Assembly: GCF_964213995.1 (NCBI RefSeq)
Contig: NW_027590154.1
Span: 248,001-312,000, forward strand
DNA: 64,000 bases
Source of the DNA: Mustelus asterias
Taxonomy: Eukaryota
Reading direction: 5' to 3'
Positions 10,961 to 63,490 of this stretch are shown here, piece after piece (positions within the stretch are counted from its first letter, which is position 1; every line of letters begins with the position of its first letter). The translations under genes and the position numbers were made by a program. The notes beneath the pieces were generated by a model that made no database searches, had not been told where the DNA came from, and saw nothing but the letters and a program-made list of their open reading frames with translations.

Positions 10961-11341
10961 TGCCGGCGTTGGACTGGGGTAAGCACAGTAAGTAATCTCA
11001 CAACACCAGGTTAAAATCCAACAGGTTTATTTGGTAGCACAAGCCACAAGCTTTCAGAGCGCTGCCCCTTCATCAGGTGAGTGGGAGTTCTGTTCACAAA
11101 CAGGGCATATAAAGACACAAACTCAATTTAAGATTATGGTTGGAATACGAGTCTTTAAACGTAATCAAGTCTTAAAGGTACAGACAATGTGAGTGGAGAG
11201 AGGGTTAAGCACAGGTTAAAGAGACGTGTATTGTCTCCAGCCAGGACAGTTAGTGAGATTTTGCAAGCCCAGGCAAGTCGTGGGGGTTACAGATAGTGTG
11301 ACATGGACCCAAGATCCCGGTTGAGGCCGTCCTCATGTGTG
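10961..11341 (-). mobile_element. Penelope-like element 3' end (ORF tail THEDGLNRDLGSMSHYL* plus terminal repeat)
   Basis: Highly similar to 28277-28670. Confidence 0.85.
11044..11080 (-). ncRNA. Minimal type I hammerhead ribozyme motif
   Basis: Minus strand UCAC-CUGAUGA-A-GGGGC agc GCUCU-GAAA-GCU-U-GUGG: complete core, stems I and II, palindromic AGCU stem III. Confidence 0.75.
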
Positions 11342-11569
11342 ATTGACAGATCCATGCTCACTGCTTCTTGCTCTGGATGCAGAGAGCTGAAAATTTCCAT
11401 GCAGGCTGCCAGACAGATAAATGTCTGCATTACTGGAGTAAAAATGTGTGGAATATACAGACCGAATTCACTTCATTTCCTTCAGTTGCTGCAAGTCCCC
11501 AACTTCCCCCAGAATGAGAAAAGAAATGGAAAGGGGGAAACATTGATTTCCTCCCAGATGTTGTCCAGA

Positions 11570-12046
11570 GGAGGGAGTTTCACTCTGAAGCTCATTGGAC
11601 AACTTCCGCATTGTGACGTCACAATAGAGTCCTGCCTGAATCAGCCAATAGGAATCACTCTGCTTCGCGGTGACGTCTCCGGGTTCCAGTGCTCAGGCCC
11701 GGGCGCGCGGACCCAGGAGCCCCGCCCCCACCCATTGTTCCCCTCCCCTACACCTCCTTGAACCAAGGTTTCCAGGCAACCGGCTGACGGCTCCGGCAAG
11801 AGCAAGAAGCCGCTCGGTGATCTCCCCCTCCCCCCGGCCCGGGACTGCAAAATGTGCGAGGGAGAGGGGAAGCTGCGCATGTGCGGGGGAGAACCCACCC
11901 TCTGATCTTCATGCTGAGGTGTTGACCAATGGGAAGAGTTGGAGGACCGGAAGAACTCTGGTCTTCCAGCCAATCAGAGCGCGGGCTTTGTGTGAATGAA
12001 GATTGATTTTCAGACAGACTCAAACTTCCTCCTGTCTCAAACATCT
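11570..12046 (+). promoter_or_regulatory. CpG-rich promoter and non-coding first exon of the 14-kb ZNF gene (donor GT at 12047)
   Basis: Palindrome attgtgacgtcacaat 11610-11625, CCAAT boxes, GC box, TGCGCATGTGC, dyad 11940-11968, acatct|gtgagt donor. Confidence 0.65.
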
Positions 12047-12199
12047 GTGAGTAAAACACTTTCTTTTCTCCCCCTTTCCATTTCTTTTCTCATTCTGGGG
12101 GGAAACTGGGGACTTGCAGCAACTGAAGGGAAAGGAAGTGAATCCAGGGAGGGTGCAGACTCTGGAAAGGTTGGTCCAGGTTTCTCTCTCTCTTAAACC

Positions 12200-13390
12200 C
12201 CAGAAAATGATCCATTTCTGCCCACTGTTTGCTATGAGCCAATCTTCTATCCACGCCAATATGTTCTCCCCGCAGCATGAATTTTTATTTGCTGCAATAA
12301 CCTTTCATGTGGCACCTCATCAAATGTCTTCTGGAAATCTAAGTACAGCGCATCCACCGGTTTCCCTTTATCCAATTCCCGATGGGGAATTTTAGAAAAT
12401 TGAACAACACATCAACTCTCTCACTCTGTTAAGACCCGAGAATGAAGCCCAGCAGGACCTGAGGACTCATCAGCCCACAGCTCCAACAGTTTGCTGAGGA
12501 CCACTTCCCTGGGAATTGTGCTTTTTCAGAGTTCATCCCACACTTCTGTTTTCTGATTTCCAGCTGTTTCTGAGTTTTAACTGTATCCTCTATTGTGAAC
12601 ACCGAGGCAAAATACTTGTTCAATTCATCTCCCAGCTCCTTATTTTTCATTATCAATTCCTGGAATCACTTTCTATTAGACAGTTAAGAAATGAGGTGGA
12701 GCAAGTGACTGAAGTGTCAGTCAGGGAGCACTATTGGGAGCACCAATAGTTTCAAAATAGTTCTGGAAAAAGATAGGACAGGTCCACAAGTCAAGGCCCT
12801 AAACTGGAGCAGGGCCACTTTTGTGGGCATTAGGCAGGATCGAGCAGATGTCGATTAGGTGAATTTGTTTGAAGGGAAAGGAATGACTGGCAATTGGGAG
12901 GTTTTGAAAGTGTGATATCAAGAGTCCAGGGGCAGTATATTCCTGTTAAGATGCAGGGAAAGAATGGTAAATTTAGGGATCTCTGGCAGACAAGGGACAT
13001 TGAGGCTCTGGTCAGGTAAAAGAAGGAAGCATAGATTGGGTTTAGGCAAGTGAATCACTCTGACTATAAAAAGTGTAAGAAAATACTGAGGAGGGAAATC
13101 AGGAGGACAGAAAGAGGGTATGATATGGATCTGGCAGGTAAGATTAAAGAAAATTCCAAGAGGTTCTATAGCTATATTAAGAGTAAAAGGGTGGACAGAG
13201 AGAGAATAGATCCCCTTAAAAATCAGTATGGCCATCTGTGTGTGGAGCCACAGGAGATGGGTGAGATTTTTAATGAATACTTCTCCTCTGTGTTTTCTGC
13301 GGAGAGCACCATGGGTGCTAAAGAAATAAGGGAAACAAGTGATGATGTCTTGGGCACACGCATGTTACTTGGGAGGAGGTATCTGCAGCC
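12200..13390. mobile_element. Decayed CR1 fragments (minus ~12200-12680, plus ~12680-13390) in the ZNF intron
   Basis: Peptides ELNKYFASVFT and KIKENSKRFYSYIKSKR...EIFNEYFSSVF. Confidence 0.8.
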
Positions 13391-14015
13391 TTATAAAAGC
13401 AAATTACTGAGGATGCTGAAATCTGAAACCAAGAGAGAAAATGATGTTTCTTGTCTAGATGACCCTTTGTCAAAGCTCTGAAACATCAGTTCTTTTCTCT
13501 CCATACAGATGCTGCCAGACCTGCTGAGAATGGGGAGAGAGTGTGTGGGATGGAGATTGACAGCTTTTGGGGAATGAGAGAGGAAAGAATGTTCCATAGA
13601 AATTGTCTGTTCTGAATTCCTATCCTGTACTGACACTGATGACTTTTGTAAACTCATTTTCCAGGATATTGAAAGAGGAATCACAGGCTGAAATCTCAAA
13701 CGTCACGTCGAGACGTGACAGAGTCATATTCCTTGGGAGCTGAATATCATCGGACTTTCAATCCAGAAGGAGAAATGATTGTCCAGTCTGTCGATTTGAA
13801 AAGATTTGAAATGTCAGTGTGACTGAAAAAGCATTGACACACTGCCACACTTGAGTGAGTGTGTTCCAATGCACTGACTAAAGAGCTTTAACCAGTTACA
13901 CAGTCTGAATAAATATCACACCATTCACAGCGGGTAGAGACTGTAATCTTGTTCTGTGTGTGGACGAAGTTTCAACTAATTGTCCACTCAAGAGAGAGGC
14001 AAGGACACCTGCATC

Positions 14016-15026
14016 ATGGAGAAACCATGGAAATGTGCGGATTGTGGGAAGAGATACAGAGCCCCATCTAAGCTGGAAGTTCATCGGCGCAACCACACTG
14101 GGGAGAGGCCATTCACCTGCTCTCAGTGTGGGAAGGGATTCACTCGGTTATCCCTCCTGCAGAGACACCAGCGAGTTCACACTGGAGAGAGGCCATTTAC
14201 CTGCTCTCAATGTGGGAAGGGATTCAGTCAGTTATCCGACCTCCAGAGACACCAGCGAGTTCACACTGGGGAGAGACCGTTCACCTGCTCTCAGTGTAGG
14301 AAGGGATTCACTCAGTTATCCAGCCTGCAGACACACGAACGCGTTCACACTGGGGAGAGACCGTTCACCTGCTCTCAGTGTGGGAAGGGATTCACTCAGT
14401 TATCCACCCTGCGGACACACGAACAAGTTCACACTGGGGAGAAACCATTCACCTGCTCTCAGTGTGGGAAGGGATTCACTCGGTCATCCCTCCTGCAGAG
14501 ACACCAGCGAGTTCACACTGGGGAGAGGCCATTCAACTGTTCTCAGTGTGGGAAGGGATTCACGAACTCATCCACCCTGCGGACACACGAACGAGTTCAC
14601 ATTGGGGAGAGACCGTTCACCTGCTCTCAGTGTGGGCAAGAATTCACTCTGTCAGCCGACCTGCAGAGACACCAGCGAGTTCACACTGGGGAGAGGCCGT
14701 TCACCTGCTCTCAGTGTGGGAAGGGATTCATTCTGTTATCCAGCCTGCGGAGACACCAGCGAGTTCACACTGGGGAGAAACCATTCATCTGCTCTGAGTG
14801 TGGGAAGGGATTCACTAACTCATCTGACCTGCAGACACACCAGCGAGTTCACACAGGGGAGAGGCCGTTCACCTGCTCTCAGTGTGGGGAGGGATTCACT
14901 CAGTCATCCAACTTGCAGAGACACCAGCGCATTCACACTGGGGAGAGACCATTCACCTGCTCTCAGTGTGGGAAGGGATTCAGAGTTTCATCCCACCTGC
15001 TGAGACACCAAGAAGTTCACGAGTGA
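14016..15026 (+). CDS. C2H2 zinc-finger protein, 12 highly homogeneous fingers, no effector domain; main exon starts at 13665
   Basis: First ATG (MEKPWKC) at 14016; 336 aa = 12 x 28; near-identical 84-bp repeats. Confidence 0.92.
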
Positions 15027-15254
15027 TTCCAGGGGTTGGATTCTGCTGTTATTGTTTCTGCTCTCAATTACATCCAGGACTGCATTTTGTTCGTTCTCAC
15101 AGTTGGTCAATGGGGAGGGTCGGAGGGTTTCTTTCTGCTGGACTGGCCGGTCTCATGACTTTGCCTCCAGTGGGCTGATGCTCTTTGAGTCTTGTTGCAA
15201 ATACCTGGTTTCAGATTTCACAAGGATCACAGAGTGACAGGGTGTTAGGAAGTT

Positions 15255-19065: not shown

Positions 19066-19084
19066 TGTTTTTAACTTGTTTTTA

Positions 19085-20545
19085 AATCGCCCAGAAACTC
19101 GTGTCTATTTTAGTTTATAATTGTGGATTTATTGGAGCCAGTTAAATGTGGAAATTTTAAGCGTAGCCTGAAGGAATTTGGAATAACTATGAGAATTTTA
19201 TTGTGTTGTCACCTCAACCCCAGATAAAGAACAAAGAGTTTGCAGGTGGTAACGTGTTTGGGATTTTAAATCAACAAAGATTAGATGTTGCCGATAAAAT
19301 CAGGCCTTGGAAGTTGGCTGAAAAAGGGTTAAGTTACAATGAAGGATCTTGCATCTTATTTTAATCAAGGAGTTGTGAGTTTGTAGTGCTCTGTCGCTTT
19401 AAGAAGCTACAGCTGCGAGAGAGAATGCTGAGGATTCATTGTTTGAAATTTACGAGCTGTGAGAATCTGTGTGTTTTGTTTGTTTTATGTGGATGTTTGT
19501 AGATGTGTTTTATCATTGTTTTGGGCTACATTTGTTAAGGTTTATCTTTCTGGGGAATTAACCTTACCTTGAGTCTTTAATTAAAGGCATTTTTGGGAGT
19601 TTAAAAACAGGATCACAAGAACGCTTAAGTAATTAATTTTGGTTATTGTTGTTGTAAAGCACATGCTAAGTTTCTCTGTTTGTGTATGGATGATATTTGT
19701 GGGTTGAACGCTTTAAGCTTTGAGGTTTTCTGTCTGTGATTTAAATCAAACAGATTTTTAAAAAGGAAGTGTAATTAATAAAGCTTTTTTTTCAAAAGTT
19801 ATGAACTTGGAGCCATATTTACTGGACAGAGACAGGATTCCAGGATATTTCACTAAACATGCGGGAATTTTAATCCGGATACAATTCACTCATGAGAATG
19901 AGTTTTAATTTGTAATGGTTATTTAAAATTTGGGACATGTGAAATGATTCTGACCAATCCTGTGTTGGATTGATCTTGGGTTAAACTTCCTGTCAGGTCC
20001 AAAGACACAATTAACACAATGAAAAGGAAAATTCTGGAATTGGATACTGAAGAAAAGAGTTTAAAAAGAGAGATTATTAAATAGAAATGATTCCCAGACC
20101 GTGTGGTCGTTAGGTTGGAACAAAGGAAGAGTGCTGACATCCATTTGAAAACTTTTAATCCACCCCTTTTCAAACTCAGTCTCTGTACAAAGAAAACCCC
20201 AAGGATGGTAGATAAGGGGTTCTGGAAAACATCATGATGGGGGCACCTATCTGTTCATGAGATGATCACAAAGCCCCATGATGTCCAAATACTAATTTCA
20301 TTGGACCTTTCTGTAATGTATGTAATCTATCACCATTCTGATTGGATTGTGTCCAGCTGGGATGGGTTGAGTAACTGGATAAGAATTGATTATTTTCTTT
20401 GTTGGGTGGAGTTGCACATGGTCAGCCCCTGTGGCTTCTCCCCACTGGCGTAACTCAATAAACTATTTGTTGAATCAGGTTTAAGTGTTGAATGATTCTT
20501 CTGAGTTCATTCACCCCAACACACTGGGTACATTACCACTTCATC
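19085..20545 (+). repeat. ~1.45-kb direct repeat, copy 1; distal part LTR-like
   Basis: Colinear with 23755-25185; distal ~270 bp has AATAAA and ends ...ccccaaca. Confidence 0.8.
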
Positions 20546-20935
20546 CCCCCCCCCCCCCCCCGGTCCCCTTGCATCTTTGACCCAAAACAAGAAATCTGTG
20601 TCCCCCCTCGTCCTTGTCCCTTCAGCTAATGGGAACAGCTTTTCTTTGTCCACCTTATCTAAACCTGTCAGAATCTTGTCTACTTCTATCAAATCTCCCC
20701 TCAACCTCCTTTGCTCCAAGGAGAACAATCCCAGCCTGACATTGACAATAAAGAACAAACTAACAGAATATGTTACTGTCTGAAATCAAATGGGAATGTT
20801 TAATTTCTGTTTTAAAGATATTGTGGATATATTGTCCTGGACAATAAAGGAATTGGAATTACTCACCTTGGGTGTGGTTGAATGGAATATATCAATCTGG
20901 TATCCACCAACAGTCTAGTGAAAGTCTGGAATATG

Positions 20936-23560
20936 TACAAAGAACAATACAGCACAGGAACAGGCCCTTCGGCCCTCCAAGCCTGCACTGATCATGTCTT
21001 CCTAACTGGACCATCCGTTTGTATCCCTCTATTCCCAGTCTGTTCATGTGGCTATCTCAATAAGTCTTAAATGATCCTAGCATGTCTGCCTCAACCACCT
21101 TGCTTGGTAGTGCATTCCAGGCCCCCACCACCCTCTGTGTAAAATACATCCCCCGCATATCTGTATTGAACCTTGCCCCCCTTACTTTGAACTTGTGACC
21201 CCTTGTGTTTGTCATTTCTGACCTGGGAAAAAGCTTCCAACTGTTCACCCTATCTATTCCCTTCATAATTTTATAAACTTCTATAAGGTCGCCCCCTCAA
21301 CCTCCGTCTTTCCAGGGAGAACAACCCTAGTTTACTCAATCTCTCCTCATAGCGAATACCCTCCATACCAGGCAACATCCTGGTAAACTTTTTCTGCACT
21401 CTCTCCAAAGCCTCCACATCCTTCTGGTAGTGCGGTGACCAGAACTGGACACAGTATTCCAAATGTGGCCTAACCAACGTTCTATGTAACTGCAACATCA
21501 TATGCCAACTTTTATACTCTATGCCCCGTCCAATAAAGGCAAGCATGCCATATGTCTTCTTCACCACCTTTTCCACCTGTGCTGCCACCTTTAAGGATCT
21601 GTGGACTTGCACACCCAGATCCCTCTGCGTGTCTCTGCTCCTGATGGTTCTGCCATTTATCGTATAGCTCCCCCCTGCATTAGATCTACAAAATGCATCA
21701 CTTCGCATTTATCTGGATTAAATTCCATCTGCCATTTCTCTGCCCAATTTTCCAGCCTATCTATGTCCTGCTGTATTCTCTGACAATGTTCATCACTATC
21801 CGCAACTCCAGCAATCTTTGTGTCGTCCACAAACTTACTAATCAGACTAGCTACATCTTCCAAATCATTTATATATATCACAAACAGCAGAGGTCCCAGT
21901 ACAGAGCCCTGCGGAACACCTGAGTCATGATGTGGAGATGCCGGCGTTGGACTGGGGTAAACACAGTAAGAGTTTTAACAACACCAGGTTAAAGTCCAAC
22001 AGGTTTATTTGGTAGCAAATGCCATTAGCTTTCGGAGCGCTGCTCCTTTCGACCACCTGCTCCATCTGACGAAGGAGCAGCGAACAAACAACGAACAATA
22101 CAGCACAGGAACAGGCCCTTCAGCTCTCCAAGCCCACGCCACTCCCTGGTCCAAACTAGACCATTCTTTTGTATCTCTCCATTCCCACTCCGTTCCTGTG
22201 GCTATCTAGATAAGTCTTAAACGTTCCCAGTGTGTCCGCCTCCACCACTTTGCCCGGCAGCGCACTCCAGGCCCCCACCACCCTCTGTGTAAAATACATC
22301 CCTCTGATATCCGTGTTAAACCTCCCCACCACCCCCCCCCCCCCCACCTTGAACCTATGACCCCTCGTGAACGTCACCACCGATCTGGGAAAAAGCTTCC
22401 CACGTTCACCCTATCTATGCCTTTCATAATTTTATACACCTCTATTAGGTCACCCCTCATCCTCCGTCTTTCCAGTGAGAACAACCCCAGTTTACCCAAT
22501 CTCTCCTCATAACTAAGCCCTTCCATACCAGGCAACATCCTGGTAAACCTCCTCTGCGCTCTCTCTAAAGCCTCCACGTCCTTCCGGTAGTGTGGCGACC
22601 AGAACTGGGTGCAGTATTCCAAATGCGGCCGAACCAACGTTCTATACAACTGCAACATCAGACCCCAACTTTTATACTCTATGCCCTGTCCTATAAAGGC
22701 AAGCATGCCATATGCCTTATTCACTACCTTCTCCACCTGTGACGTCACCTTCAAGGATCTGTGGACTTGCACACCCAGGTCCCTCTGCGTACTTACACCC
22801 TTTATGGTTCTGCCATTTATCGTATAGCTCCCCCCTACGTTAGTTCTACCAAAATGCATCACTTCGCATTTATCAGGATTGAACTCCATCTTCCATTTCT
22901 TTGCCCAAATTTCCAGCCTATCTATATCCTTCTGTAGCCTCTGACAATGTTCCTCACTATCTGTGCTCCGAAAGCTAATGGCATTTGCTACCAAATAAAC
23001 CTGTTGGACTTTAACCTGGTGTTGTTAAAACTCTTACTGTGAACACCCTAGTCACAGCCCTCCAATCAGAAAAAGACCCCTCCACTGCTACCCTCTGTCT
23101 TCTATGGCTAAGCCAGTTCTGTACCCATCTCGCTAGTTCACCTTTGATCCCGTGAGGTTTAACCTTTTGCACCAGCCTGCCATGTGGGACCTTGTCAAAT
23201 GCTTTACAAAAATCCACGTAGACGACATCCACGGCCCTTCCCTTGTCAATCATTTTTGTCACCTCCTCAAAAAACTCAACCAAATTTCCCTCATACAAAA
23301 CCATGTTGTCTATCGCTAATGAGACTATTCAGTTCTAAATGTGTATAGATCCTATCTCTAAGAATCTTCTCCAACAATTTCCCTACCATGGACGTTATGC
23401 TCACTGGCCTATAATTGTCCGGGTTATCCTTGCTACCCTTCTTAAATAACGGGACCACATTTGCTGTCCTCCAATCCTCTGGGACCTCACCTGTGTCCAA
23501 TGAAGAAACAAAGATTTCTGTTAGAGGCCCAGCAATTTCATCTCTTGTCTTTCTCAGTAA
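20936..23560 (-). mobile_element. CR1 LINE interrupted by an inverted Penelope terminal pair (21921-23047) that is itself split by a second CR1 (22083-22963)
   Basis: RT peptides on both sides; TSD gaacacc at 21914-21920 and 23041-23047; empty site of the whole nest near 33050-33070. Confidence 0.85.
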
Positions 23561-23754: not shown

Positions 23755-25185
23755 ACTGCCCGGAAACTCATGTGTCTATTTTAGTTTATAATTGAAGATT
23801 TCTGGGAATAAGTTAAATGCGGAAATATTAAGCATCGCCTGGAGGAATTTGGAATAACTGAGAGTTTTATCCCCAGATAAAGAACAAAGATTTTGCCGGT
23901 GTTTGGGTGTAACGTGTTTGGGATTTTAAATCAACAAAGATGTTGCCTCTAAATCAATCCTTGTAAGTTGGCTTAAAAAAGGTGAAGTTATAATGAAGGA
24001 TATTGTATCTGATTTTAATCAAGGAGTTATGAGCTTGTAGTGCTCTGTCGCTTTAAGAAGCTATAGCTGCGAGAGAGAATGCTGAGGATTCATTGGTTGA
24101 AATTTACGAGCTGTGAGAATCTGTGTGTTTTGTTTGTTTTATGTGGATGTTTGTAGATGTGTTTTATCATTGTTTTGGGCTACATTTGTTAAGGTTTATC
24201 TTTCTGGAGAATTAACCTTACCTTGAGTCTTTAATTAAAGGCATTTTTGGAAGTTTAAAAACAGGATCACAAGAACGCTTAAGTAATTCATCCTGCTTAT
24301 TGTTGTTGTAAAGCACATGCTGTGTTTCTCTGTTTGTGTGTGGATGATATTTGTGGGTTGAACACTTCAAGTTTTGAGGTTTTCTGTCTGTGATTTAAAT
24401 CAAACAGATTTTTAAAAAAGGAAGTGTGATTAATAAAACTTTTTTGTTCAGAAGTTATGAACCTGGAGCCATATTTACTGGCCAGAGACAGGATTCCAGG
24501 ATATTTTATTAAACATGTGGGAATTTTAATCCGGATACAATTCACCCATGTGAGAATGAGAGTTTTAATTTGTAATGGTTATTTAAAATTTGACACATGT
24601 GAAATGATTCTGACCAATCCTGTGTTGGATTGATCTTGGGTTAAACTTCCTGTCAGGTCCAAAGATTTATTCCTGACGCAAGTAACACAAAGAAAAGGAA
24701 AATTCTGGAATTGGATCCTGAAGAAGAGTTTAAAAAGAGAGAGTATTAAAGAGAAATGTTCCCAGACCCTGTGGTCATTAGATTAAAACAAAGGAAGGGT
24801 GCTGACGGCCATTTGAGAACTTGTAATCCACCCCATTTCTAACTAAGGGAGTCTATGTACAAAGAAAGCCCAAGAAAGACCCCCCCCCAAGGGGGGTCTG
24901 GAAAGCATCATGATGGGGGCACCTGTCCATGAGATGATCACAAAGCCCCATAATGCCCAGTTACTACTTTGATTGAACCTATAATGTATGTAACCTATCA
25001 CCATTCTGATTGGATTGTGTCCAGCCGGGATGGGCTGAGTAACTGGATAAGAATTGATGATATTCTTTGTTGGGTGGAGTTGCACATGGTCAGCCCCTGT
25101 GGCTTCTCCCCGCTGGCGTAACTCAATAAACTGTTTGTCGATTGAATCAGTCACAACACACTGGGTACATTACCACTTCATCCTT
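23755..25185 (+). repeat. ~1.43-kb direct repeat, copy 2; distal part LTR-like
   Basis: Colinear with 19085-20545. Confidence 0.8.
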
Positions 25186-26650: not shown

Positions 26651-26990
26651 GGGCCACACGGTAGCACAGTGGTTAGCACTGCTGCTTCACAGCTCCAGGG
26701 ACCCGGGTTCGATTCCCGGCTTGGGTCACTGTCTGTGTGGAGTTTGCACATTCTCCTCGTGTCTGCGTGGGTTTCCTCCGGGTGCTCCGGTTTCCTCCCA
26801 CAGTCCAAAGATGTGCGGGTTAGGTTGATTGGCCAGGTTAAAAAAATTGCCCCTTAGAGTCCTGGGATGCGTAGGTTAGAGGGATTAGTGGGTAAAATAT
26901 GTGGGGGTGGGGCCTGGTGGGATTGTGGTCGGTGCAGACTCGATGGGCCGAATGGCCTCCTTCTGCACTGTAGGGTTTCTATGATTTCTA
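26651..26990 (+). mobile_element. Full-length HE1-like V-SINE with CR1-derived tail
   Basis: A and B boxes, V core, tail gggccgaatggcctccttctgcactgtagggtttctatgatttcta. Confidence 0.9.
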
Positions 26991-28276: not shown

Positions 28277-28894
28277 ATGATGTGGAGATGCTGACGTTGG
28301 ACTGGGGTAAACACAGTAAGAAGTCTCACAACACCAGGTTAAAGTCCAACAAGTTTATTTGGCAGCAAAAGCCACTAGCTTTTGGAGTGCTGCTCCTTCA
28401 TCAGGTGAGTGGGAGTTCTGTTCACAAACAGGGCATATAAAGACACAAACTCAATTTACAAAATAATGGTTGGAATGCGAGTCTTTACAGGTAATCAAGT
28501 CTTAAAGGTACAGACAATGTGAATGGAGAGAGGGCCAAGCACAGGTTAAAGAGGTGTGTATTGTCTCCAGCCAGGACAGTTAGTGAGATTTTGCAAGCCC
28601 AGGCAAGTCGTGGGGCTTACAGATAGTGTGACATAAACCCAAGATCCCGGTTGAGGCCATCCTCATGTGTGCGGAACTTGGCTATCAGTTTCTGCTCAGC
28701 GATTCTGCGTTGTCGTGTGTTGTGAAGGCCGCCTTGGAGAACGCTTACCCGAAGATCAGAGGCTGAATGCCCCTGACTGCTGAAGTGTTCCTCAAGTTAA
28801 GGGAACACTCCTGCCTGGTGATTGTCGAGCGGTGTTCATTCATTCGTTGTCGTAGCGTCTGCATGGTCTCCCTAATGTACCATGCCTTGGGACA
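28277..28894 (-). mobile_element. Penelope-like element: GIY-YIG endonuclease C-terminal half plus terminal repeat with a G12>A-mutated hammerhead (28372-28408)
   Basis: CPKAWYIRETMQTLRQRMNEHR, frameshift, EHFSSQGH...AEQKLIAKFRTHEDGLNRDLGFMSHYL*. Confidence 0.88.
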
Positions 28895-30092
28895 GGAGCG
28901 GTGCCCAAGGACTGGAGGACAGCTGATATGGTACCACTCGTCAAGAAGGGAAGTAGGGAAAAAAACAACAAATTCCTGGCCAGTGAGTCTAACTTCAGCA
29001 ATAGGGAAACGATTGGAAAAAGTTCTGGGGGACAGAATTAATTTCCACTTGGGGAGGTGAGGATTAATCAAGGATGGGCAGCATGGTTTTGGCAAAGAGA
29101 GATCATGCCTTACAAATCTGGTTGAATTTTTGAGGAGGTGACTCGGTGTGTAGATGAGGGGAGTTAAGTTGATGTCGTCAACATGGACTTCATTAAGGCT
29201 TTTGACAAGGTCCCACATGGGAGGCTGACGGAGAAGGTAAAAGCCCATGGGATCCAGGGCAATTTGCCAAACTGGACCCAAAATTGTGTTTGTGACTGGA
29301 TGCCTGTGTTTAGTGATGTTCTGCAGGGATTGGTGCTGCGTTGCTTGTTGCTTGTAGTGTACGTTAATGACCTGGATATGAATATAGGAGGTATGATAAG
29401 TAAGTTTGCAGATGACACAAAAATTGATGATGTGCTAAAAACCGAGGAGCAAAACCTTAGATTACAGGACGATATCGACAGGGCGGCACAGAGGCACTGC
29501 TGCCTCACAGTGCCAGGGACCCAAGTTTGATTCCCGGCTTGCGTCACCCTCTGCGTGGAGTCTGCACGTTCTCCCCATGTCTGCGTGGGTTTCCTCCGGG
29601 TGCTCCGGTTTCCTCCCACAGTCCAAAAGATGTGTTGATTAGGTGCATTGGTCATGCTAAATTCTCCCTCAGTGTACCTAAACAGGCGCTGGAGTGTGGC
29701 GACTCAGGGATTTTCACAGTAACTTCACTGCAGTGTTAATGTAAGCCTACTTGTGACACTAGTAAATAAACCTTAAAACTTTAGTTAGATGGGCAGAACA
29801 GTGGCAAGTGGAATTCAACCCTGAAAAGATTAGGTAATTTTTGGAGGACGAGCAATGTAATGGAATGCGCAATGAATGGTCAGATCCTAGGAAGTACAGA
29901 GGATCAGAGGAACCTTGGTGTGCATGTCCATAGATCTCTGAAGACAGTAGGACAGTTACATAAGGTGGTTCAGAAGGCACATGGGATACTTGCCTTTATT
30001 AACCAAGGCATTGAATATATGGCTGTAGAGTTTCACATTCTAATCAGTATTCTGTCACTTGATTTTGTGCCTCTGTATGCCCTGTTTCCACT

Positions 30093-30129
30093 CCATCTGA
30101 CGAAGGAGCAGCGCTCCGAAAGCTTATGG
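30093..30129 (+). ncRNA. Minimal hammerhead ribozyme motif, first of tandem pair
   Basis: CCAU-CUGACGA-A-GGAGC agc GCUCC-GAAA-GCU-U-AUGG; predicted cleavage after 30125. Confidence 0.8.
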
Positions 30130-30251
30130 TATTTGCTACCAAATAAACCTGTTGGACTTTAACCTGGTGTTGTGAGACTTCTTACTGTGTTCACCCCAGT
30201 CCAACACCGGCATCTCCACATCATGGCCCTGTTTGAGAGCAGATATCCACT

Positions 30252-30288
30252 CCATCTGACGAAGGAGCAGCACTCTGAAAGCTAATGG
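30252..30288 (+). ncRNA. Minimal hammerhead ribozyme motif, second of tandem pair (weakened stem II)
   Basis: CCAU-CUGACGA-A-GGAG cagca CUCU-GAAA-GCU-A-AUGG; predicted cleavage after 30284. Confidence 0.7.
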
Positions 30289-31727
30289 CATTTGCTACCA
30301 AATAAACCTGTTGGACTTTAACCTGGTGTTGTTAAAACTCTTACTGTGTTTACCCCAGTCCAAGGCCAGCATCTCCACATCATTGAATATAAGGGCAGGG
30401 AGGTTATGATGGAGCTGTCTAAAACACTGGATAGGCCACAGCTGGAGTACTGTGTGCAGTTCTGGTCGCCACACTATAGGAAGGATGTAATTGCACTGGA
30501 GAAGGTGCAGAGGAAATTCCCCAGGGTGTTGGCTGGGCTGGAGTGTTTCAGCTATGAGGAGAGGCTGGAGAGGCTGGCATTGTTTTTCTTGGAGCAGAGA
30601 AGGGTGAGGGGGACCTGATTGAGGTGTATAAAATTCTGAGGGGCACAGATAGGGGGCATAGGAAGGAACTTTTCTCTTTAGTCGAGAGGTCAATAACCAA
30701 GGGCATGGATTTAATTTCAGGAGCAGGAGGTTTATAGGAGAAATGAGGAGAAATCTTTTGACCCAGAGGGTCATGAATCTGGAACTCAGTGCCTGAAAGA
30801 GTGGTAGAGGTGGGAACCTTCACAACATTTAAGAAGAATTTAGTTAAGCTTTTGAAATGCCTTAGCATACAAGGTTACGCACAAAGAGTGGAAAATGGGG
30901 TTGGAATAGAACGGTCCTTGATGGCCGGCACAAACACGATGGGCCGAAGGGCCTCTTTCCATGCTGTAAAACTCTATGACCACCCACGTTGGCAGCAAGT
31001 TCAATATCATCATCAGTCACAACCCCCCTGTATCTTCACTAACTGAATCAATCCATTTAAAACATTCTTAGTTGAGGTATGTAGCCATATTTCTGTTTGG
31101 CCGGCATCCTGCATGGAGATTTCCAGCTCTCTGTGTCCAGGACAGGAAGCAGTGAGCACGGATCTGTCAATCAGCCTCAATCAGCACCTTCAGGAGAATT
31201 GGGAGGGTGAATATTAGATACAGCAGAGTGAGAATGGAGGGAGAGTGTGTGGGATGGAGATTTACAGCTTTTGGAGAATAAGAGAGGAAAGAATGTTCCA
31301 GAGAAACTACAATTGTTCTGAATTTCTATCTTGTAATGACACTGATCACTTTTGTAAACACCTTTTACAGGATATTGGAAGGGGAGGATTTACAGACAGA
31401 AATCTCAAACCTAATGTCACATCAACATCTGACATCCTCACTCAATTCATCGGGGTCTGAATCTATCGATCTTTGATTCTCGAAGGAGAAATGTTTCCCT
31501 GTTCTGTCTGCTTCAAAAACTTCAATCATTTGTGTGACTGGAAAAGCACCAAGGCACTGATACACCCGAGTGAGAGTGTTCCAGTGCACTGAGTGTGGAA
31601 AGAGCTTTAACCAGTTACATTGCCTGAAAATACATCGCAGCATTCACAGCGGGGAGAGACTGTACCCGTGTTCTGTGTGAGATTTAACTGATTGTTTAAC
31701 CTGGAGAGTCACAAGGACACCCACACC

Positions 31728-42790: not shown

Positions 42791-43356
42791 ACAGAAGCTT
42801 GGTACAGAAGGAGGCCATTTGGCCCACCATGTCTGCACCAGCTCTCCAAATGAGCATTATGGCTTTGTGCCATTCTCCTGCCTTTTCCCCATGCCCCATG
42901 TTAGTAAACTTCATCAGCTATCCAGCTCTTCACTCCCCCGAGAAATCAGATGAAGATTTTTGGAGTCTACAATTGGCCTTTATTCAAGTTATAACAGGGC
43001 AAACTGGTTTCCACACATGTGGCTACAGACTCCTAGAACAAAGGAATACAATAGAATACAATTATACCTTTAGGATCAACTACAGGTAATTAACATACAC
43101 AGATTGAAATTTTACTCCAAACTAATAGTTCTGATTACTTCATTTGTTTCCCATAGTAGTGTTTAACCAATTACACCAACTCCACTTTTCCCTAATTACA
43201 ATATCCAATCATCAATAGGGCACGTACACATAGCTACATTATCAATAAACATGTGTCTATGGTCCTTGATTGTCTGGCAACCTGAGTAGTGTGTTTTGAT
43301 AGAAGTGTTATGACTTCTGTCAAAACACACTGCAGTCCTGGGCTGTTATTTGAAGT

Positions 43357-43635
43357 ACAGCAGGTTTATTTGGTAGCAAATACCATTAGCTTTCGGAGCG
43401 CTGCTCCTTCGTCAGATGGAGTGGAAATCTGCTCTCAAACAGGGCACAGAGACACAAAATCAAGTTACAGAATACTGATTAGAATGCAAATCTCTACAGC
43501 CAACCAGGTCTTAAAGATACAGACAATGTGAGTGGAGGGAGCATTAAGCACAGGTTAAAGAGATGTGTATTGTCTCCAGACAGGACAGCCAGCAAGTCCA
43601 GGAGGCAAGCTGTGGGGGTTACTGATAGTGTGACA
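43357..43635 (-). mobile_element. Penelope-like 3' fragment
   Basis: Homologous to 11020-11303 and 30020-30150. Confidence 0.85.
43383..43419 (-). ncRNA. Minimal hammerhead ribozyme motif, intact
   Basis: Minus strand CCAU-CUGACGA-A-GGAGC agc GCUCC-GAAA-GCU-A-AUGG. Confidence 0.8.
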
Positions 43636-44299
43636 CTATGTCACACTATCAGTATGTCACACTATGTCACATTATGTCACAGAAGAGTTAGAGTATGAGA
43701 GAGAGACAGCTAGAAATATACAGATGTATATATAGTAAGAGTTTATGTGGATATCTAAATTTTAAAAAAAGTTAAAAGTGAATGTTGATCTTATAGAAAG
43801 TGAGTCTGGGAATTATTAATGGAAAGTAAGGAGCTGGCAGATGAATTCAACGGGTACTTTGCATCAGTCTTCATTATAGTCGAGTACTCTACCCAATAGT
43901 ATAGAAGATAGACGTAATATGCTATCAGGATGTGGAAGGGAGGGAGGAACTCAGGAAACTTACCGTTACTTATGAAATGGTACTGAGCAAATTGTTGAAG
44001 CTGTGGGCTGACAAATCCCTGGGTCCCGATGGACTTCATCCTTTGTCATTTTTTGCTGTTCTTTATATTCTGTCCAGTTTTCTGACCTGCCACCTGTCTT
44101 TGTGCAATTATTTACCTTTTTCTTTCAGTTTGATCCTATCTTTAACTTTTTAGTGAACCATGGATGGTGGGTCCTCCCCTTGGAATTTGTCGTTCTCATT
44201 GGAATGCATCTGTCCTGGGTTTTCTGAAATATTCCTATCAATGTCTGCCACTGCATCTCTATTGACCTGTCCCTTAACCTCATTTGCCAGTTCACTTAC

Positions 44300-49368: not shown

Positions 49369-49908
49369 TGTAAATATCTAAAATCTGCCTCCTTCACCCA
49401 ACTTCTCCCACTTCTCTGTCCTTGTCCTATAGAAGCCAGTTTCTTGTATTGACACAGATCAGGTTCCCTTCTTTGAAAGACATTAGTGAACCAGTCAGAT
49501 TTTTAAGACAATCCAGTTTTCGTGGTCACTTTTTCCTTTACCCCACGCACTCTCTCTCCCTCAGCTCTCATAGAAGCCAGAGACATGTGTTGACCCAGAC
49601 TGGATGGGCAGATTCCTTCCCTGAAGGACATTAGTGAACCAGTTGGGTTTTTATGACAATCGATCAGTTTTCTTGGTCTCTTTTCCCCAGTGCCGGCCCC
49701 ACAAATTACCAGATTCATTCAGCTCAATTTCACAACCTGCCTTTGTGTTTGTGTGGGTTCTCTCTCACTCCCTTTTGCCTGTTTCAAATCAATTTCACAG
49801 GGACTGGAGTGGGACAATTTGCAGTCCGGGAACTGAAAACAAACATCATATCAGGAGCTGACGGAGTCACCCAATTTATCATAACCTGAATATCAGTGGA
49901 TTTTGATC

Positions 49909-50691
49909 ATGGAAGGAAAAAGCACCGTTCACAGTGGAGAGACACCATACACGTGTTCTGTGTGTGGACGAGGTTTCAGCCGATCAACTGGCCTGTCAAA
50001 ACATAAGTGCAGTCACTCCATAGAGAAACTGTGGAAATGTGTGGACTGTGGGAAGGAATTTAATTACCCATCCCAGCTGGAAACTCATCAGCGCAGTCAC
50101 ACTGGGGAGAGGCCGTTCACCTGCTCTGAGTGTGGGAAGGGATTCACTCTGTCATCCCACCTACTTACTCATCAACGACTTCACACCGGGGAGAGACCTT
50201 TTAAATGCTCAGACTGTGGGAAATGTTATAAAAGTTCCTGGGAATTGATGTCCCATCAACATGTTCACACTGACGAGAGACCATACAGATGCTGTCACTG
50301 TGGGACTGGGTTCAGGCAATCGTATAGCCGTACTGCACATCAGCGAATTCACACCGGGGAGAGGCCGTTCACCTGCTCTGAGTGTGGGAAGGGATTCACT
50401 CGGTCATCCCACCTGCTGAGACATCAACGTACTCACACTGGGGAGAGGCCATTCAACTGCTCCAAATGTGGGAAGGGATTCAGACAGTCATCTGAACTGT
50501 TGACACACGAACGCATTCACACGGGGGAGAGGCCACTTACGTGCTGTGTGCGTGGGAAGGGATTCATTCAATCATCCCATTTGCTGATACATCAGCGAGT
50601 TCACAGTGATAAAAAACCTTTTAAATGCTCAGACTGTGGGAAATGCTTCAAAATGTCCCATCCATGTGTTCATAGTGAGGCTGAGGGGTGA
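49909..50691 (+). CDS. C2H2 zinc-finger gene, 7 intact fingers plus 1 degenerate, ninth finger truncated at a CR1 fragment (possible pseudogene); exon starts at 49801
   Basis: [16 protein letters not shown]...; array breaks at [11 protein letters not shown] and the ORF stops inside CR1 sequence. Confidence 0.8.
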
Positions 50692-52714: not shown

Positions 52715-52813
52715 AACATTTATATTTGAAGAGGTTCCCAGTCTGTGCAGCAGAACTGGGGAAGCCTTTGGGCAGAGACTGTGCTGCTGTTTACCCTTCT
52801 GATCGATGGTAGT

Positions 52814-52884
52814 CATGATGTGGAGATGCCGGCGTTGGACTGGGGTAAACACAGTAAGAAGTTTAACAACACCAGGTTAAAGTC
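52814..52884 (-). mobile_element. ~70-bp Penelope terminal fragment without the hammerhead
   Basis: atgatgtggagatgccggcgttggactggggtaaacacagtaag...ccaggttaaagtc. Confidence 0.8.
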
Positions 52885-55221: not shown

Positions 55222-55346
55222 GAGTTGCCGGCGTTGGACTGGGGTCGGCACAGTAAGTACTCTCACAGCACCAGGTTAAAGTCCAACAGATTTATTTGGT
55301 TGCACGAGCTTTCGGAGCATTGCCCCTTCATCAGGTGACTACTTAC
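55222..55346 (-). mobile_element. Solo Penelope terminal unit with 16-bp TSD in the IgM CH4-TM1 intron
   Basis: Direct repeat tgtttccctttctgtg at 55206-55221 and 55347-55362. Confidence 0.85.
55303..55337 (-). ncRNA. Minimal hammerhead ribozyme motif on the IgM sense strand
   Basis: Minus strand CAC-CUGAUGA-A-GGGGC aau GCUCC-GAAA-GCU-C-GUG. Confidence 0.72.
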
Positions 55347-55952: not shown

Positions 55953-55985
<33 letters not shown>

Positions 55986-59128: not shown

Positions 59129-59520
59129 TCATTGACATGAATTAACGGTGTCCATCAGTGCAAGGGAAATGTTCACAAAACTGGGTTTACCGCTGGATTT
59201 GTCAACTGTTCTGTTGATGATCTTCAAGGGGATGGCTTCATGTCCCACCACACAGGAGTAAGAAGCACCGCTGGACCATTCCTCTGCTGCAATGGATAAC
59301 AGGCTGTACATGAAGAAGGAGCTATTCCCGCTCTCCGCGACCACCTCGGTGTTCTTATAGTTCCCAGGATTCACCGGCTTGTCGTTGACGGTCCACTTGA
59401 CGAAGATCTCTCGAGGGGAGAAACGTCTCACTAAGCAGCTGAGGGAGACGAATCTCTGAGCGGAGACTTCTTCTGCCGAGGGCAGGAGGACAGAGACGAA
59501 CGGTTCCCGCGGATTTGGAT
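59129..59520 (-). CDS. IGHM: IgM CH4 exon plus secretory tail; internal donor for the membrane form after 59191; AATAAA at 59096-59101 and 59087-59092
   Basis: [31 protein letters not shown]...[21 protein letters not shown]|[20 protein letters not shown]; penultimate Cys and NIS sequon. Confidence 0.96.
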
Positions 59521-60022
59521 CTGCAGAAAATGTACAATAAATGTCAATAAACTGGAGAATTCCGGAGAGAATGTAACCACTGGCGAGATATCAGAAAAAT
59601 GTGCTTCGCTTTCGATTTTAAATGTTTCCATTTTTGACTTCCAATTTGGAGCAGAGGTGAACACAATTATTTTCTCAAATAACTCAGGGGGCTGGACTGG
59701 GAAGTTTCAGAAATTTTACAGCACTGAATCAGGCTATTCGGCCCAACTGATCGGCTTTAATTTTGGTTTTCTGGTTTTTATGCTCCACATCAGGCTCCTC
59801 CCTCGTTATTCAATCTAAACCCAATAACATCGCCTTCAGTTCACTTTTCATTCATCAACACATCAAATTTCCCTGTTAAAATATCTACAACCCCCAGTTT
59901 TTAGTTAGTGGAGTTTCCACTCAGGGGAGACCATTAATGCACTGAATACTGAATATTGACCAGTACACTGACACTGGAAATAGACACAGTGACGCATTTA
60001 TTGCTTCAATCTCTCAGCTCAC

Positions 60023-60331
60023 CTGTTTCCTTGTGGATGGATTTTCTTAAAGGAGTCGGCAGATCCTGATGGCTCACCACGCAGTCAAACACAGCCGCAC
60101 TCAGCCAGGCTTGTGTCGAGATGTTTAAGTTGCTGACCACGCTGTCAGGATCCGCTCCAGGCTTTTCGGCAATCTCTGATTTCAAATACTTCCTGTCTCG
60201 GATCCAGGACACGTTGACTCCATAAGGAGCATTAGAAATGATGCAGGTTAAGGTCACGGTCGCCTCCAGTAAGACCTGTTCTATTGGTGGTGGCTGTATC
60301 GTCACTGTGGTATCAGGGCACTGGGGAGGAT
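60023..60331 (-). CDS. IGHM: IgM CH3 exon
   Basis: [30 protein letters not shown]...W...[12 protein letters not shown]; 309 nt, phase 1-1, canonical splice sites. Confidence 0.95.
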
Positions 60332-60775
60332 CTGTGAATGAAAAATGAAAATCAACCCTAGTTCCCTCTTCAGAAGCAGGACAGCAGTGTTCAGCCTGAA
60401 GGAGACGAAGTTGCCTTCGATATATCAACCTCTAACTATCACCTTTCAACCTCTATGGAGGATGGAAAACCAGCCTGCTCTGTGAAATTATTCTCTTTTT
60501 GTTCAAGTATTTTAGCAGCGGTATCATTCTCATGAATCAACATTGCAGTATTCCCCAACAAATATACCATTCCTGAACTCAGGAACCAAGTACTGGCAGT
60601 TAGTTTATAAGTAGGGTGGATGCACTTCCCAATATTTTACCCCTATGCTGTGACCTGTGAAACAGTCCGACACCGACTGTCTCTCCAAATCTTACCAGCT
60701 GTCTCAGGAAAAAGCTGACATCAAGACCACCTCGCTTACTATATTACTTCAAAATGGAAGGGAACACTATTTCAA

Positions 60776-61092
60776 GGGGAGGCAGTGGCATGGTGGTGTT
60801 GCCAATGGTCTTGTAACCCAGGGCACGACTCTGGGGACACAGATTCGAATCTCACCACTGCAGATGGTGAAATTTGAATTTAGTAAAAATCTATCATTAA
60901 AAGTCAAATGATCATCATGAAGCCATTGTTGTAAAAACCCACCTGGTTCACGAATGCCCTTTAGAAAAGTAAATCTGCTGTCTTTATCTGGCCTGGCATG
61001 CATGTGACTCCAGATCCACAGCAATGTGGTTGACACTTAAGTGCCCTCAGGGATGGGAAATAAATGCACATCTCATGAAGGAATAACAAAAA
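60776..61092 (+). mobile_element. tRNA-derived SINE, same family as 38407
   Basis: Shared core ctggttcac..tgtgactccag..gcaatgtggttgac and tail. Confidence 0.7.
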
Positions 61093-61251
61093 TTGCTGTT
61101 GTGATGAAATTCTGAATGGGGCACTGTCCCAATGCAGCAAACCACATGACAGTAAATTAGAAGTTGTTCTATCTTTGTACTAACTTTAATAGATCCCTAA
61201 TTTCGATTAACATCGAAATTATATATTTTATCGTCGGTTTGAGTCTCTTAC

Positions 61252-61563
61252 CCAGAGATCCGCTGATGTTCTGACTCTGGGTGAATCCTTGATGAGTGAC
61301 CTGGCAGGTATAGACCGCTTTGCTGATCCATTCCTGAGCGGAGACTGTCAGCCGACTGCTGGCCGAGAAGTTCCCGTTCACTTCACAGGCGGGAGAGGTG
61401 ACAATTCCTGAATCCATGGGTTGTCCATTCTTCAGCCACTTCACCGTCATTGACTTTGGCTGGAAATCGATGATTGAACAGACGATGGTTGCAAATTTTC
61501 TGCTGGTGATTTCTTCACTGGAACTCACGGTGAGGATAACGGTTGGGGGGAGAACGCGTGGGC
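61252..61563 (-). CDS. IGHM: IgM CH2 exon
   Basis: [46 protein letters not shown]...YTCQVTH; 312 nt, phase 1-1. Confidence 0.95.
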
Positions 61564-61639
61564 CTTCAACAAACAAATGTTCAGACGTTACTTGAAGATT
61601 CAATTGACATCAATTAAAATTAGTTCTTTTATTTGAGCA

Positions 61640-62395
61640 CCATAGCTGCCGATTTGAGAATTATATCCATGGTTTGGTTGAATTGGCAGGGAAATGGCGA
61701 ATGGAATTCAACCGTCAAAAGTGCCACACAATGCATTTGGGGAGGGAAAACAAAGCAAGGCAATAAACTGGAATGTTAAGAGGGATTGAGGAAATGCAAG
61801 ACCTTAGAGTGCACGTCCACAGGTCCTTGTAGATGGTAGGGCAGCTGGAAAAGTTGATCAAGAAAGCATATCGGATTAGTTCCTCTGTTATGTGAGATAT
61901 TGAATGCAAAAACAGTGATACAATGATGGAGCTGCATAAAACCTAGTTAGGCCACGTTTGGAGGTTGCTGTACAGTTCTGGTCACCACGTTGCAGGAATA
62001 ACGTAATGACTCTGGAGAGAGATGAGGTTTACAAGAATGTTGCCAGGGACTGAAAATTCCCGCCATGAGGCGAGATTGGATCGGCAGGGTTTGTTCTCTT
62101 TAGGAAAAGAGGAGGCTGAGGCGTGACATAATTGTGGTTCACAAAATAATAAGGGACGTAGGCAGAAATAATTCATTCCCCAAGTGGAGGGCTCAATTAC
62201 CAGGGAGCATGGTCATTTAAAAGGTATCTGGATCTGCATCTCAAGTGCTTTAAGCTGAAATGCTACGGAGCAAGGGCTGGAAAATAGGCTTACTTTGTCA
62301 GGCTTGTTTATTTGTTCTCCCTTTTGGCCAGCACAGACATGATGGGCTAAATGGCCTCATGCTGCACAGTAACATTTCTGTTGTTCTTTGGTTCT
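61640..62395 (+). mobile_element. Old, degraded CR1 fragment
   Basis: Remnants of the WQMEFN..KC and LVRP.LE..VQFWSP regions and CR1 3' UTR. Confidence 0.7.
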
Positions 62396-62534
62396 GAGCA
62401 ACTTTTCAGTCAGGAGGCACTTACCTGGATTTTGCATAATTCAATTTTTCAGAGTGCTACATATCAGTTATAACTAAAGCCTTATACAGTTCAATCAGAG
62501 CGTTCCTGTCTTGCCCAAGTTCCACAACACTTAC

Positions 62535-62834
62535 ATTGCATTCCAATGCTCTTGACCGAGCTGCTGTGTCGAACCTCACACTTGATTTTGCTGCACTCTC
62601 CCTCTGACTGGGTGATGGTTAACTGGCTGCTCAAGGTGTAGGTTCCCTTCGCGTTTCTCACTGATGGATAAGTCTTAAATCCAGTGTCGATCAGCTGCCC
62701 ATTTTTCTTCCAGGTCAGTTTGGAGACATCTGGAGAGTAGTCCATCGCCAAACAGCCGTAGGTGATGGAGCCAGCGGAGTTGTGTTGCTGACAGGAAGAG
62801 ACGAGGCTGTAGAGAGTGGGCGGAGACGGTGTCG
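62535..62834 (-). CDS. IGHM: IgM CH1 exon
   Basis: [45 protein letters not shown]...YTLSSQL...CEVRH; 300 nt; ttcccag| acceptor and |gtaagt donor. Confidence 0.95.
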
Positions 62835-63365
62835 CTGGGAAAGAATAGTCGATTCAACAAGTTAGACTCTTACCTACGTTTATTAATTAATCAAACATAT
62901 TTATACAAGTATGTTTCTATATTAGGTATAACTCTTGGGGCTAAAGGGATCAGTGGATATGGGTAGTAGGCGGGCTCAGGATATTGATGAGCCGTAATCA
63001 AAGTGAATGGTAGAGCAGGGTCAAAGGGCCGAAGAGCCTCCTCTTGCTTCTATTTTCTATGTTTGAACGTCACAATTTGACTAGAATTATGAACTTAAGT
63101 TAATATTTCCCGATTAAGACCTACGCACACCTTTGAGCTTCTGTTACTCCTATCATTTGGGAATCGCCATCTTTGGAGAAACTCACATCACTGTCTCCAC
63201 CTCTATCAGATTGGAAAGAGAAAAAACATTTTGATGTCATCGTAATGACATACCATTCACTGGATTAACAGAGAAGTGTAAAGAGTTTCTCCATTACTTC
63301 AGGCACTACCTATTTCTCAAACAACAGCACTTTGTGATGAAGAAGTTGTCTCTTCATTCATATCA

Positions 63366-63490
63366 GCCACTCGCCTGATGAAAGAGCTCCAAAAGCTCAC
63401 GATTCCAAATAAGCCTGTTGGAGTTCAACCTGGTGTTGTCAGACTCCTTACTGTGCCCACCCCAACCTAGCGTCGGCATATCCACATTGT
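63366..63490 (+). mobile_element. Older Penelope terminal unit with a degenerate hammerhead, antisense to IgM
   Basis: cctgatgaaagagctccaaaagctc...ccaaataagcctgttgg...ggcatatccacat. Confidence 0.7.

Follow-up and report, generated by a model that had tools for sequence, protein, structure and literature searches.

We analyzed a 64,000-nucleotide stretch of the Mustelus asterias genome (contig NW_027590154.1 of assembly GCF_964213995.1, positions 248,001 to 312,000; here referred to as the window), in which an earlier note, made from the letters alone, had described a dispersed family of minimal hammerhead ribozymes. Our best explanation, which we hold with a probability of about 0.8, is that these copies are fragments of the 3' pseudo-long terminal repeat (pLTR) of one abundant shark Penelope-like element (PLE) family, likely inserted by the element's own protein, with its reverse transcriptase (RT) and GIY-YIG endonuclease (EN), from uncleaved RNA. 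It is likely that these are truncated insertions of an ordinary kind and not a separate mobile element driven by a ribozyme.

On sequence grounds, the scattered motifs are real hammerhead-ribozyme sequences. A descriptor of the form stem I-CUGAnGA-stem II-GAAA-UH-stem I' matched five sites in the window (CUGA at 11076, 43415, and 55334 on the reverse strand and at 30097 and 30256 on the forward strand), while 100 dinucleotide shuffles of the window gave a mean of 0.05 matches and a maximum of 1. All the motif sites named in the earlier note were recovered. BLAST and a covariance model agreed on 11 segments in nine insertions (Table 1), with no further copy added by the latter; seven segments carry a full-length motif, two a partial one (the arm ending at 22048 and the arm split by a CR1 fragment), and two none. 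The earlier list was correct in the copies that it named but had missed three segments, two without a hammerhead (10284-10369 and 52811-52884) and one with half of it (21926-22048).

Table 1. Features of the PLE family in the window; junction bases of the copies were placed by eye.
Feature	Position	Strand	Description
Longest copy	28277..28894	-	ca. 618 bp; 3' end of the open reading frame (ORF), 3' untranslated region (UTR), pLTR, G12-mutated hammerhead, downstream hairpin, tail; reference for copy coordinates
GIY-YIG endonuclease fragment	28617..28894	-	C terminus of the PLE ORF; frameshift near 28795; from protein comparison
Putative pLTR core promoter	28408..28441	-	TATA-like box 28441-28435, initiator (Inr)-like CCCACT with A at 28410; predicted from sequence
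Hairpin downstream of hammerhead	28291..28350	-	Predicted; outer stem GUUGGACU/AGUCCAAC, then an internal loop and an inner stem
Optional tail	28277..28313	-	ca. 36 nt between the two preferred 3' ends; lacking in the arm ending at 23040
86-bp copy	10284..10369	+	No hammerhead; in CpG-island promoter-like region; 10-bp target-site duplication (TSD), 10274-10283 and 10370-10379
381-bp copy	10961..11341	-	5' truncated; hammerhead 11044-11080, core intact, G10.1-U11.1 wobble
Palindromic insertion	21926..23040	.	Head to head, in CR1; 14-bp TSD with 2 mismatches
Left arm of palindrome	21926-22048	-	With tail
Right arm of palindrome	22060-22082 + 22965-23040	+	Without tail
CR1 fragment of a long interspersed nuclear element (LINE)	22083..22964	-	Later insertion inside stem-loop II of the right-arm hammerhead
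Partial tandem	30020..30380	+	361 bp, in CR1; 11-bp TSD; period 159, units 91% alike
Hammerhead of tandem unit a	30093-30129	+	Hammerhead with intact core and stem II; 12-nt deletion upstream
Hammerhead of tandem unit b	30252-30288	+	Hammerhead with two stem II changes
43-kb copy	43350..43681	-	ca. 290 bp, 3' shortened; best-preserved hammerhead, core 43383-43419; predicted extended stem I reaches AAUAAA
74-bp copy	52811..52884	-	No hammerhead
55-kb copy	55222..55346	-	125 bp; 16-bp TSD; intact hammerhead 55303-55340; third subfamily
63-kb copy	63367..63487	+	121 bp, decayed; hammerhead with G12 changed and stem II deletion

The integrity of the motifs was variable. The five cores previously described as intact do keep their core letters, but an unbroken core together with stem II was found only at 30093, 43383, and 55303; at 11044 and 30252 the G10.1-C11.1 pair, present by letters in 5/7 full-length motifs, has turned into G-U (the remaining 2/7), and 30252 has in addition a C-A mismatch in stem II. 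The copies at 28372(-) and 63370(+) are mutated as reported, with G12 changed to A in both and stem II short of 5 nt in the second. The split copy at 22072/22965 exists as well, but it is the right arm of the palindromic insertion 21926-23040, interrupted later by a CR1 LINE fragment. Both the extra A after A9 and the palindrome AGCU as stem III were found in all seven full-length motifs, in agreement with the earlier note and with PMC4209133, where the palindromic region is 15.2-16.2; pairing of this palindrome in trans is the only way in which stem III can form (computed duplex energy, -2.5 to -4.5 kcal/mol). The nucleotide at H17 is A, U, or C in the nine window copies having that position, but the claim that it is never G did not extend to the four Logan sequencing runs, in which G made up 0.9 to 3.7% of the aligned contig depth (in run X19, 3.7% G versus 3.1% C), so that it carries little weight. 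Judged by their letters, the motifs are PLE-associated minimal type I hammerhead ribozymes (min-HHR), a class already known, as the earlier note acknowledged (PMC4209133). Rfam hammerhead models gave no match at an E value of ≤5 in the window, nor in L001, a distant PLE described below. Unconstrained folding of the seven window motifs returned the hammerhead shape in only one (the 43-kb copy; z, -1.8), unit a of the 30-kb tandem folded as a hammerhead when the RNA began at the predicted start (see below), and no strong fold z-score was found in the window apart from the hairpin of the 55-kb copy (-2.5). For stem I of the CCAU/AUGG type, folding predicts an extension to 4+7+6 bp, and in the 43-kb type the predicted extension pairs with part of AAUAAA.

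The GIY-YIG fragment at 28.6 to 28.9 kb marks the parent, as had been proposed, through its homology to a shark protein with RT and GIY-YIG domains. A 59-amino-acid piece (28620-28796, reverse strand) had 26 matches among 39 candidates, with identities of 66 to 92%, and those with a species name were all from sharks. It is 91% identical to P0005, a protein of 643 amino acids with RVT_1 and the YIG motif, and 89% identical to P0002, which matches Pfam GIY-YIG; a piece in another frame upstream was 78% identical, over 32 amino acids, to the YIG region of P0005. Pfam missed both window pieces, the identity of which rests on these homologues. The linker that joins RT to EN in P0005, P0006, and their relatives reads C-x4-C-xx-C, and a CX2-5CxxC linker in this position has been assigned to Neptune and Nematis (PMC8557442); from this motif, the family probably belongs to the Neptune clade. 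It is also very abundant: 154,877 contigs of one run aligned to a 761-bp stretch, a figure that is not a copy number. Summed contig depth was not used for copy number or for a truncation profile, since short overlapping contigs inflate the sums.

In the coordinates of the reference copy, the 5' ends of the 11 arms are staggered (28894, 28671, ca. 28635, ca. 28492, 28434, 28412, ca. 28410, ca. 28409, 28398, ca. 28364, and 28346), giving arm lengths of 74 to ca. 618 bp. The 3' ends are concentrated: 8 of the 11 fall at 28270-28281, with one at ca. 28313 (defined by its TSD), one at 28289, and one at 28339. The same two preferred ends appeared as loose ends at 28277/8 and 28313-28315 in all four runs examined, for instance, in X19, with 1,543 plus 853 contigs at 28277/8 and 665 at 28313. 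TSDs of 10, 11, 14 (2 mismatches), and 16 bp flank four of the nine insertions; the site of the 10-bp duplication is found single and empty in a paralogous promoter (46407-46416), and the host CR1 reading frames resume across the inserts at 22 to 23 kb and 30 kb. The two arms of the 22-kb palindrome are identical over all 75 shared nucleotides and end at different 3' ends, and the 55-kb copy bears a 6- to 7-nt inverted 5' piece, derived from the second 3' end, that repeats the head-to-head plan in miniature. Among the 15 joints listed (of 322) in run contigs, 11 connected opposite strands. At the 5' junction of the 43-kb copy (43620-43681), a perfect 16-bp palindrome follows about five imperfect 8- to 10-bp repeats of the same letters, which suggests repeated fold-back or slippage by the RT. 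Several of the 3' junctions show microhomology between the region of the RNA start and the target. The hallmarks of PLEs are present, namely, 5' truncation, a partial tandem, inverted pLTRs, an optional tail, and TSDs; inverted pLTR, tail, TSD, and partial tandems are described as standard for these elements in PMC3846280 and PMC8557442.

These structures would fit a mechanism modeled largely on the anole PLE, for which two internal RT starts define a 30- to 40-bp tail and both strands are extended (PMC11167929). A full-length master would be transcribed from its pLTR, the PLE protein would bind near the pLTR hairpin, and its endonuclease would cut the target. RT would then start internally, through short microhomology, at one of two sites, located at the conserved hairpin or shortly past it; early termination would leave stumps of 70 to 600 bp, and priming on both strands would give palindromes. 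The hammerhead would be carried along only because it lies 60 to 130 nt upstream of the RT start, and most genomic copies would be decaying passengers. Its own role, going by what is known of the family, may be that of a weak, dimer- or protein-assisted ribozyme processing tandem or read-through PLE transcripts. In the anole element in vitro, hammerhead mutants insert normally and cleavage needs protein (PMC11167929). PMC4209133 describes min-HHRs in the pLTRs of fish PLEs, mainly as solo motifs left by truncated elements, and reports no cleavage of monomers and low cleavage of dimers.

Along these lines, all the full motifs in the window run across the cleavage site (28376/28375), indicating that the templates were uncleaved or re-ligated, and the two smallest copies carry no ribozyme, so that mobility needed none in the inserted piece. 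The earlier note had instead suggested a retrozyme- or SINE-like independent unit (SINE, short interspersed nuclear element). The absence of any end at the cleavage site (0/11 arms begin or end there), the two shortest copies, and the staggered 5' ends leave this proposal without support in the window, and the spread of lengths over the 11 arms broadly follows the smooth truncation that the earlier note had itself named as speaking against stand-alone units. A true non-LTR retrozyme, the tandem monomers of which self-cleave, circularize, and are reverse transcribed from the circle, is in our view very improbable. In its favor is the 30-kb tandem, with two hammerheads 159 nt apart, together with a preprint that reports pLTR-derived retrozymes from one chondrichthyan genome (bioRxiv 10.64898/2026.07.22.740005). 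However, a tandem occurs in only one of nine insertions and amounts to 1.9 units, with stem II of unit b damaged. The tandem begins in sequence that it shares with the 3' UTR of the 43-kb copy, 80 nt upstream of the predicted RNA start. Units a and b differ by 9% and by a deletion of 12 nt, and unit b has a diagnostic in common with the 22-kb arms. Such a start and such differences are not what rolling copying of a single 159-nt circle would yield, but would follow from a template switch or from a second insertion into the end of the element itself. Neither is there a discrete monomer, because the staggered 5' ends (n = 11 arms) run continuously into the 3' UTR and ORF. No joint going back from 28277 to 28434 was found among the 15 listed of 322, a weak point given that the reference belongs to another subfamily. 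In that preprint, any two-unit tandem counts as a retrozyme and cleavage was obtained in one of nine tested dimers; the 30-kb tandem might pass this permissive filter, but as a PLE by-product.

Several observations weigh against truncated PLE insertion as the whole explanation. The window holds only a C-terminal fragment of the ORF and no full-length element, no TSD was found for five of the nine insertions, the counts of lengths and ends come from the 11 segments of one window, and the clade assignment is drawn from the linker motif. In addition, for the 55-kb/63-kb subfamily the window contains no PLE sequence farther upstream, and the starts of 3 of the 11 arms fall within a span of 4 nt (28409-28412), a hint of a discrete class of ca. 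125 bp. The last two points could mean that copies of this type belong to a family that is non-autonomous and SINE-like, being transcribed from solo pLTRs and mobilized in trans by the PLE protein. The 55-kb and 63-kb copies share a shorter spacer after the hammerhead, have nearly equal lengths, and start no more than 4 nt apart; their subfamily recurs as loose ends in all runs examined, and non-autonomous PLE derivatives have been reported (PMC8557442; bioRxiv 10.64898/2026.07.22.740005). Still, we consider this family unlikely. The clustering of starts is not significant (P, about 0.08), and an arm of another subfamily (22060) uses the same start, pointing to a common RNA 5' end and not to a separate family. 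Moreover, both copies lack the predicted upstream TATA box and would thus be sterile unless driven from an internal promoter, such as the TATA-less one of Drosophila virilis Penelope (PMC2377424).

Covariation was assessed on an alignment of eight window segments plus L001, leaving out the 43-kb, 23-kb, and 52-kb ones. Two-sided changes affected three of four pairs in proximal stem I, and helix II had one-sided changes only; the covariation score of the whole structure was reached by 0/500 shuffles, but related sequences can beat shuffles, the structure was drawn from the same sequences, independent lineages are few, and some of the changes in the distal helix stem from misaligned L001 columns. 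The shark copies by themselves hold two clean two-sided changes, one beside the core (U-A to C-G) and one in the distal helix (U-A to A-U), and each of them reflects one event in a subfamily. As for the switch from CCAU/AUGG to UCAC/GUGG that had been read as compensatory, it holds one two-sided change (U-A to C-G), but the other is a wobble, and as the two forms mark subfamilies, the switch is one event and not many. The CCAU/AUGG subfamily is abundant in run X1, while its sequence upstream of the core is nearly absent from X19, X2, and X8, so that it looks lineage-restricted.

The best independent support for the hammerhead, at the level of sequence comparison, is L001, a PLE with 56% protein identity found by a protein-guided scan. 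Its hammerhead region aligns with that of the shark family (score, 31; null maximum, 28), but its 3' UTR does not (18; null mean, 19.6); the core and the UH site are kept, one stem I pair has changed, and stem II is different. L001 has the same ORF-TATA-hammerhead-hairpin order as the shark element.

Outside these elements, pattern scans of viral, metagenome, and prokaryote-genome contigs gave 0 matches, and a protein-guided scan of viral contigs gave 0 loci. A bacterial symbiont assembly contains a PLE locus (L002; NZ_MPRK01000347.1, 1-1304), the ORF of which is 61% identical to the shark-type protein; the locus stops shortly past the stop codon and is probably DNA of the host animal carried over into the assembly. 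There, the covariance model found no pLTR, and four matches to the core pattern had spacers with no obvious stem II. PLE-derived sequence also occurs in shark protein isoforms (P0012, P0018, P0019, P0025, P0026, P0034, and P0063), annotated as XRCC5, PPP1R12A-like, FAM210B, septin 5a, FAM204A, DIPK2Ab, and epsin 2, through either exonization or an annotation artifact.

The hairpin downstream of the hammerhead is, by prediction, the structure on which RT loads and initiates. Its stretch aligns between the shark family and L001 better than the hammerhead region does (score, 55; null maximum, 25). In the outer stem of 8 bp, pairing reaches 96%, and in L001 both sides have changed in two of the inner pairs. 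RNAalifold recovered the outer stem with a covariation term of nearly zero (1/17 pairs changed on both sides), which makes the inner stems less certain. One of the two preferred 3' ends lies in the 3' arm of the hairpin and the other ca. 14 nt after it, an arrangement that recalls the AC-rich stem-loop where the anole RT starts (PMC11167929). We found no paper on such a hairpin in Neptune elements in open-access text.

Upstream, the spacing of TATA-like box and Inr-like motif is 29 to 31 nt in the shark family and in L001 (TATA at 947-954, Inr A at 978), and TATA plus Inr in the pLTR has already been noted in PMC3846280. The RNA is thus predicted to start within the 5' strand of stem I. The three arms starting at 28409-28412 each follow a G, a coincidence noticed after the fact; this would fit copying of the cap, since untemplated cap-derived G has been described (PMC3287187), but only weakly, as the G may also be a letter of the flank or of the subfamily. 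Inversion joints linking 28410-28412 with 28361/2 could come from the self-complementarity of stem I; they do not independently prove an RNA 5' end. A candidate ORF start, an ATG near the 3' end (52816), was not confirmed, and distant full-length relatives start differently. Putting these elements together, it is conceivable, although we regard it as doubtful, that a capped mRNA starts inside stem I, ca. 135 nt upstream of the RT-loading hairpin, that priming at the hairpin copies the leader up to the cap, and that the hammerhead is a switch for 5' decapping or processing of the element's own mRNA. If so, discrete and "complete" mini-insertions of ca. 125 bp with a cap-derived G would map the transcription start of a PLE from DNA alone, the extension of stem I would hide the poly(A) signal of read-through RNA, and the hairpin would define the cis signal of Neptune-type PLEs, of use for PLE-based insertion of RNA into genomes. 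Confirmation would also give a testable role to PLE hammerheads, the function of which is called unclear in PMC8557442.

The window itself, a piece of vertebrate DNA, contains six zinc-finger arrays of the C2H2 type along with numerous RT fragments of CR1 type and constant exons of immunoglobulins. One might ask whether the host has co-opted the hammerheads for the processing of zinc-finger or immunoglobulin transcripts. A zinc-finger array on the same strand has the 30-kb tandem 1.2 kb upstream of it, and the intact 43-kb copy lies 1.3 kb downstream of another one. Against this, both strands hold copies, several of which are embedded in other repeats, and six of the nine hammerhead-bearing segments are damaged or incomplete, so that we give co-option almost no credence.

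The zinc-finger arrays (84-bp period, some apparently frameshifted) lie at 7989-9167(-), 13909-15100(+), 31.6-32.4 kb(+), 39.5-40.3 kb(+), 44959-45714(-), and 49885-50691(+). Paralogous CpG-island promoter-like regions are found at ca. 4.2-4.5, 10.1-10.5, and 46.2-46.6 kb, and a 28-bp tandem (10641-10747; 3.8 copies, 97%) with a TGACGTCA motif resembling a cAMP response element (CRE) lies in such promoter-like sequence. Four immunoglobulin constant-type exons at 59129-62853(-), two with a Pfam C1-set match and the last ending in a secretory-tail-like sequence, resemble what we take to be the constant region of the shark IgM heavy chain; the 63.4-kb PLE copy is just upstream of them, in antisense. 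Short repeats with tRNA-like heads (10805-10955, 26659-26819, 27012-27169, 29477-29627, and 37262-37418) are presumably a shark SINE, and the 11-kb PLE copy adjoins one of them. Two repeat pairs of at least 300 bp are 93 to 95% identical (19297-19596 with 23951-24250 and 20603-20902 with 32729-33028).

Three known systems come closest to the shark family. The min-HHRs in pLTRs of metazoan PLEs, among them Xena, Poseidon, and Neptune of fish (Cervera and De la Pena 2014, PMC4209133), share its type I topology, a helix III reduced to the palindromic 15.2-16.2, the extra nucleotide between 9 and 10.1, G10.1-C11.1, and a 4-bp proximal helix I, as well as the location in the pLTR after the GIY-YIG stop codon and the prevalence of solo copies in several subfamilies. 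The differences are the shark host, not named in the accessible text of that paper, a helix II of 5 bp rather than the 7 to 8 bp of Schistosoma, and one subfamily with a predicted, interrupted helix I of 17 bp covering part of AAUAAA. Canonical PLEs with EN (Arkhipova 2013, PMC3846280; Craig 2021, PMC8557442; Frangieh 2024, PMC11167929) are alike in 5' truncation, partial tandems, head-to-head inversion, junction palindromes, the optional 30- to 40-bp tail, TSDs, the TATA plus Inr-like pLTR motif, and the insertion of uncleaved RNA. In contrast, the linker here is of the Neptune type versus Poseidon, TSDs are 10 to 16 bp versus 8 to 10 bp in Adineta, and the likely start codon comes downstream of the hammerhead, while the ORF of the anole element starts inside the hammerhead (PMC11167929). 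Metazoan non-LTR retrozymes (PMC7229834; bioRxiv 10.64898/2026.07.22.740005) also have a type I hammerhead and are pLTR related, small, and mostly noncoding, but in the window copies of the shark family a tandem, of 1.9 units, occurs in only one insertion, the ends are unrelated to the cleavage site, and the lengths are continuous with ORF-bearing copies; PMC7229834 itself sets canonical retrozyme hammerheads apart from the minimal PLE type. What is new is a shark family of PLE pLTR minimal hammerheads in truncated insertions. It adds to a class, and an arrangement, described in 2014; it is of value for annotation, as Rfam misses the motifs, and its genomic copies show the two-start, uncleaved-template behavior reported in vitro for the anole element in 2024.

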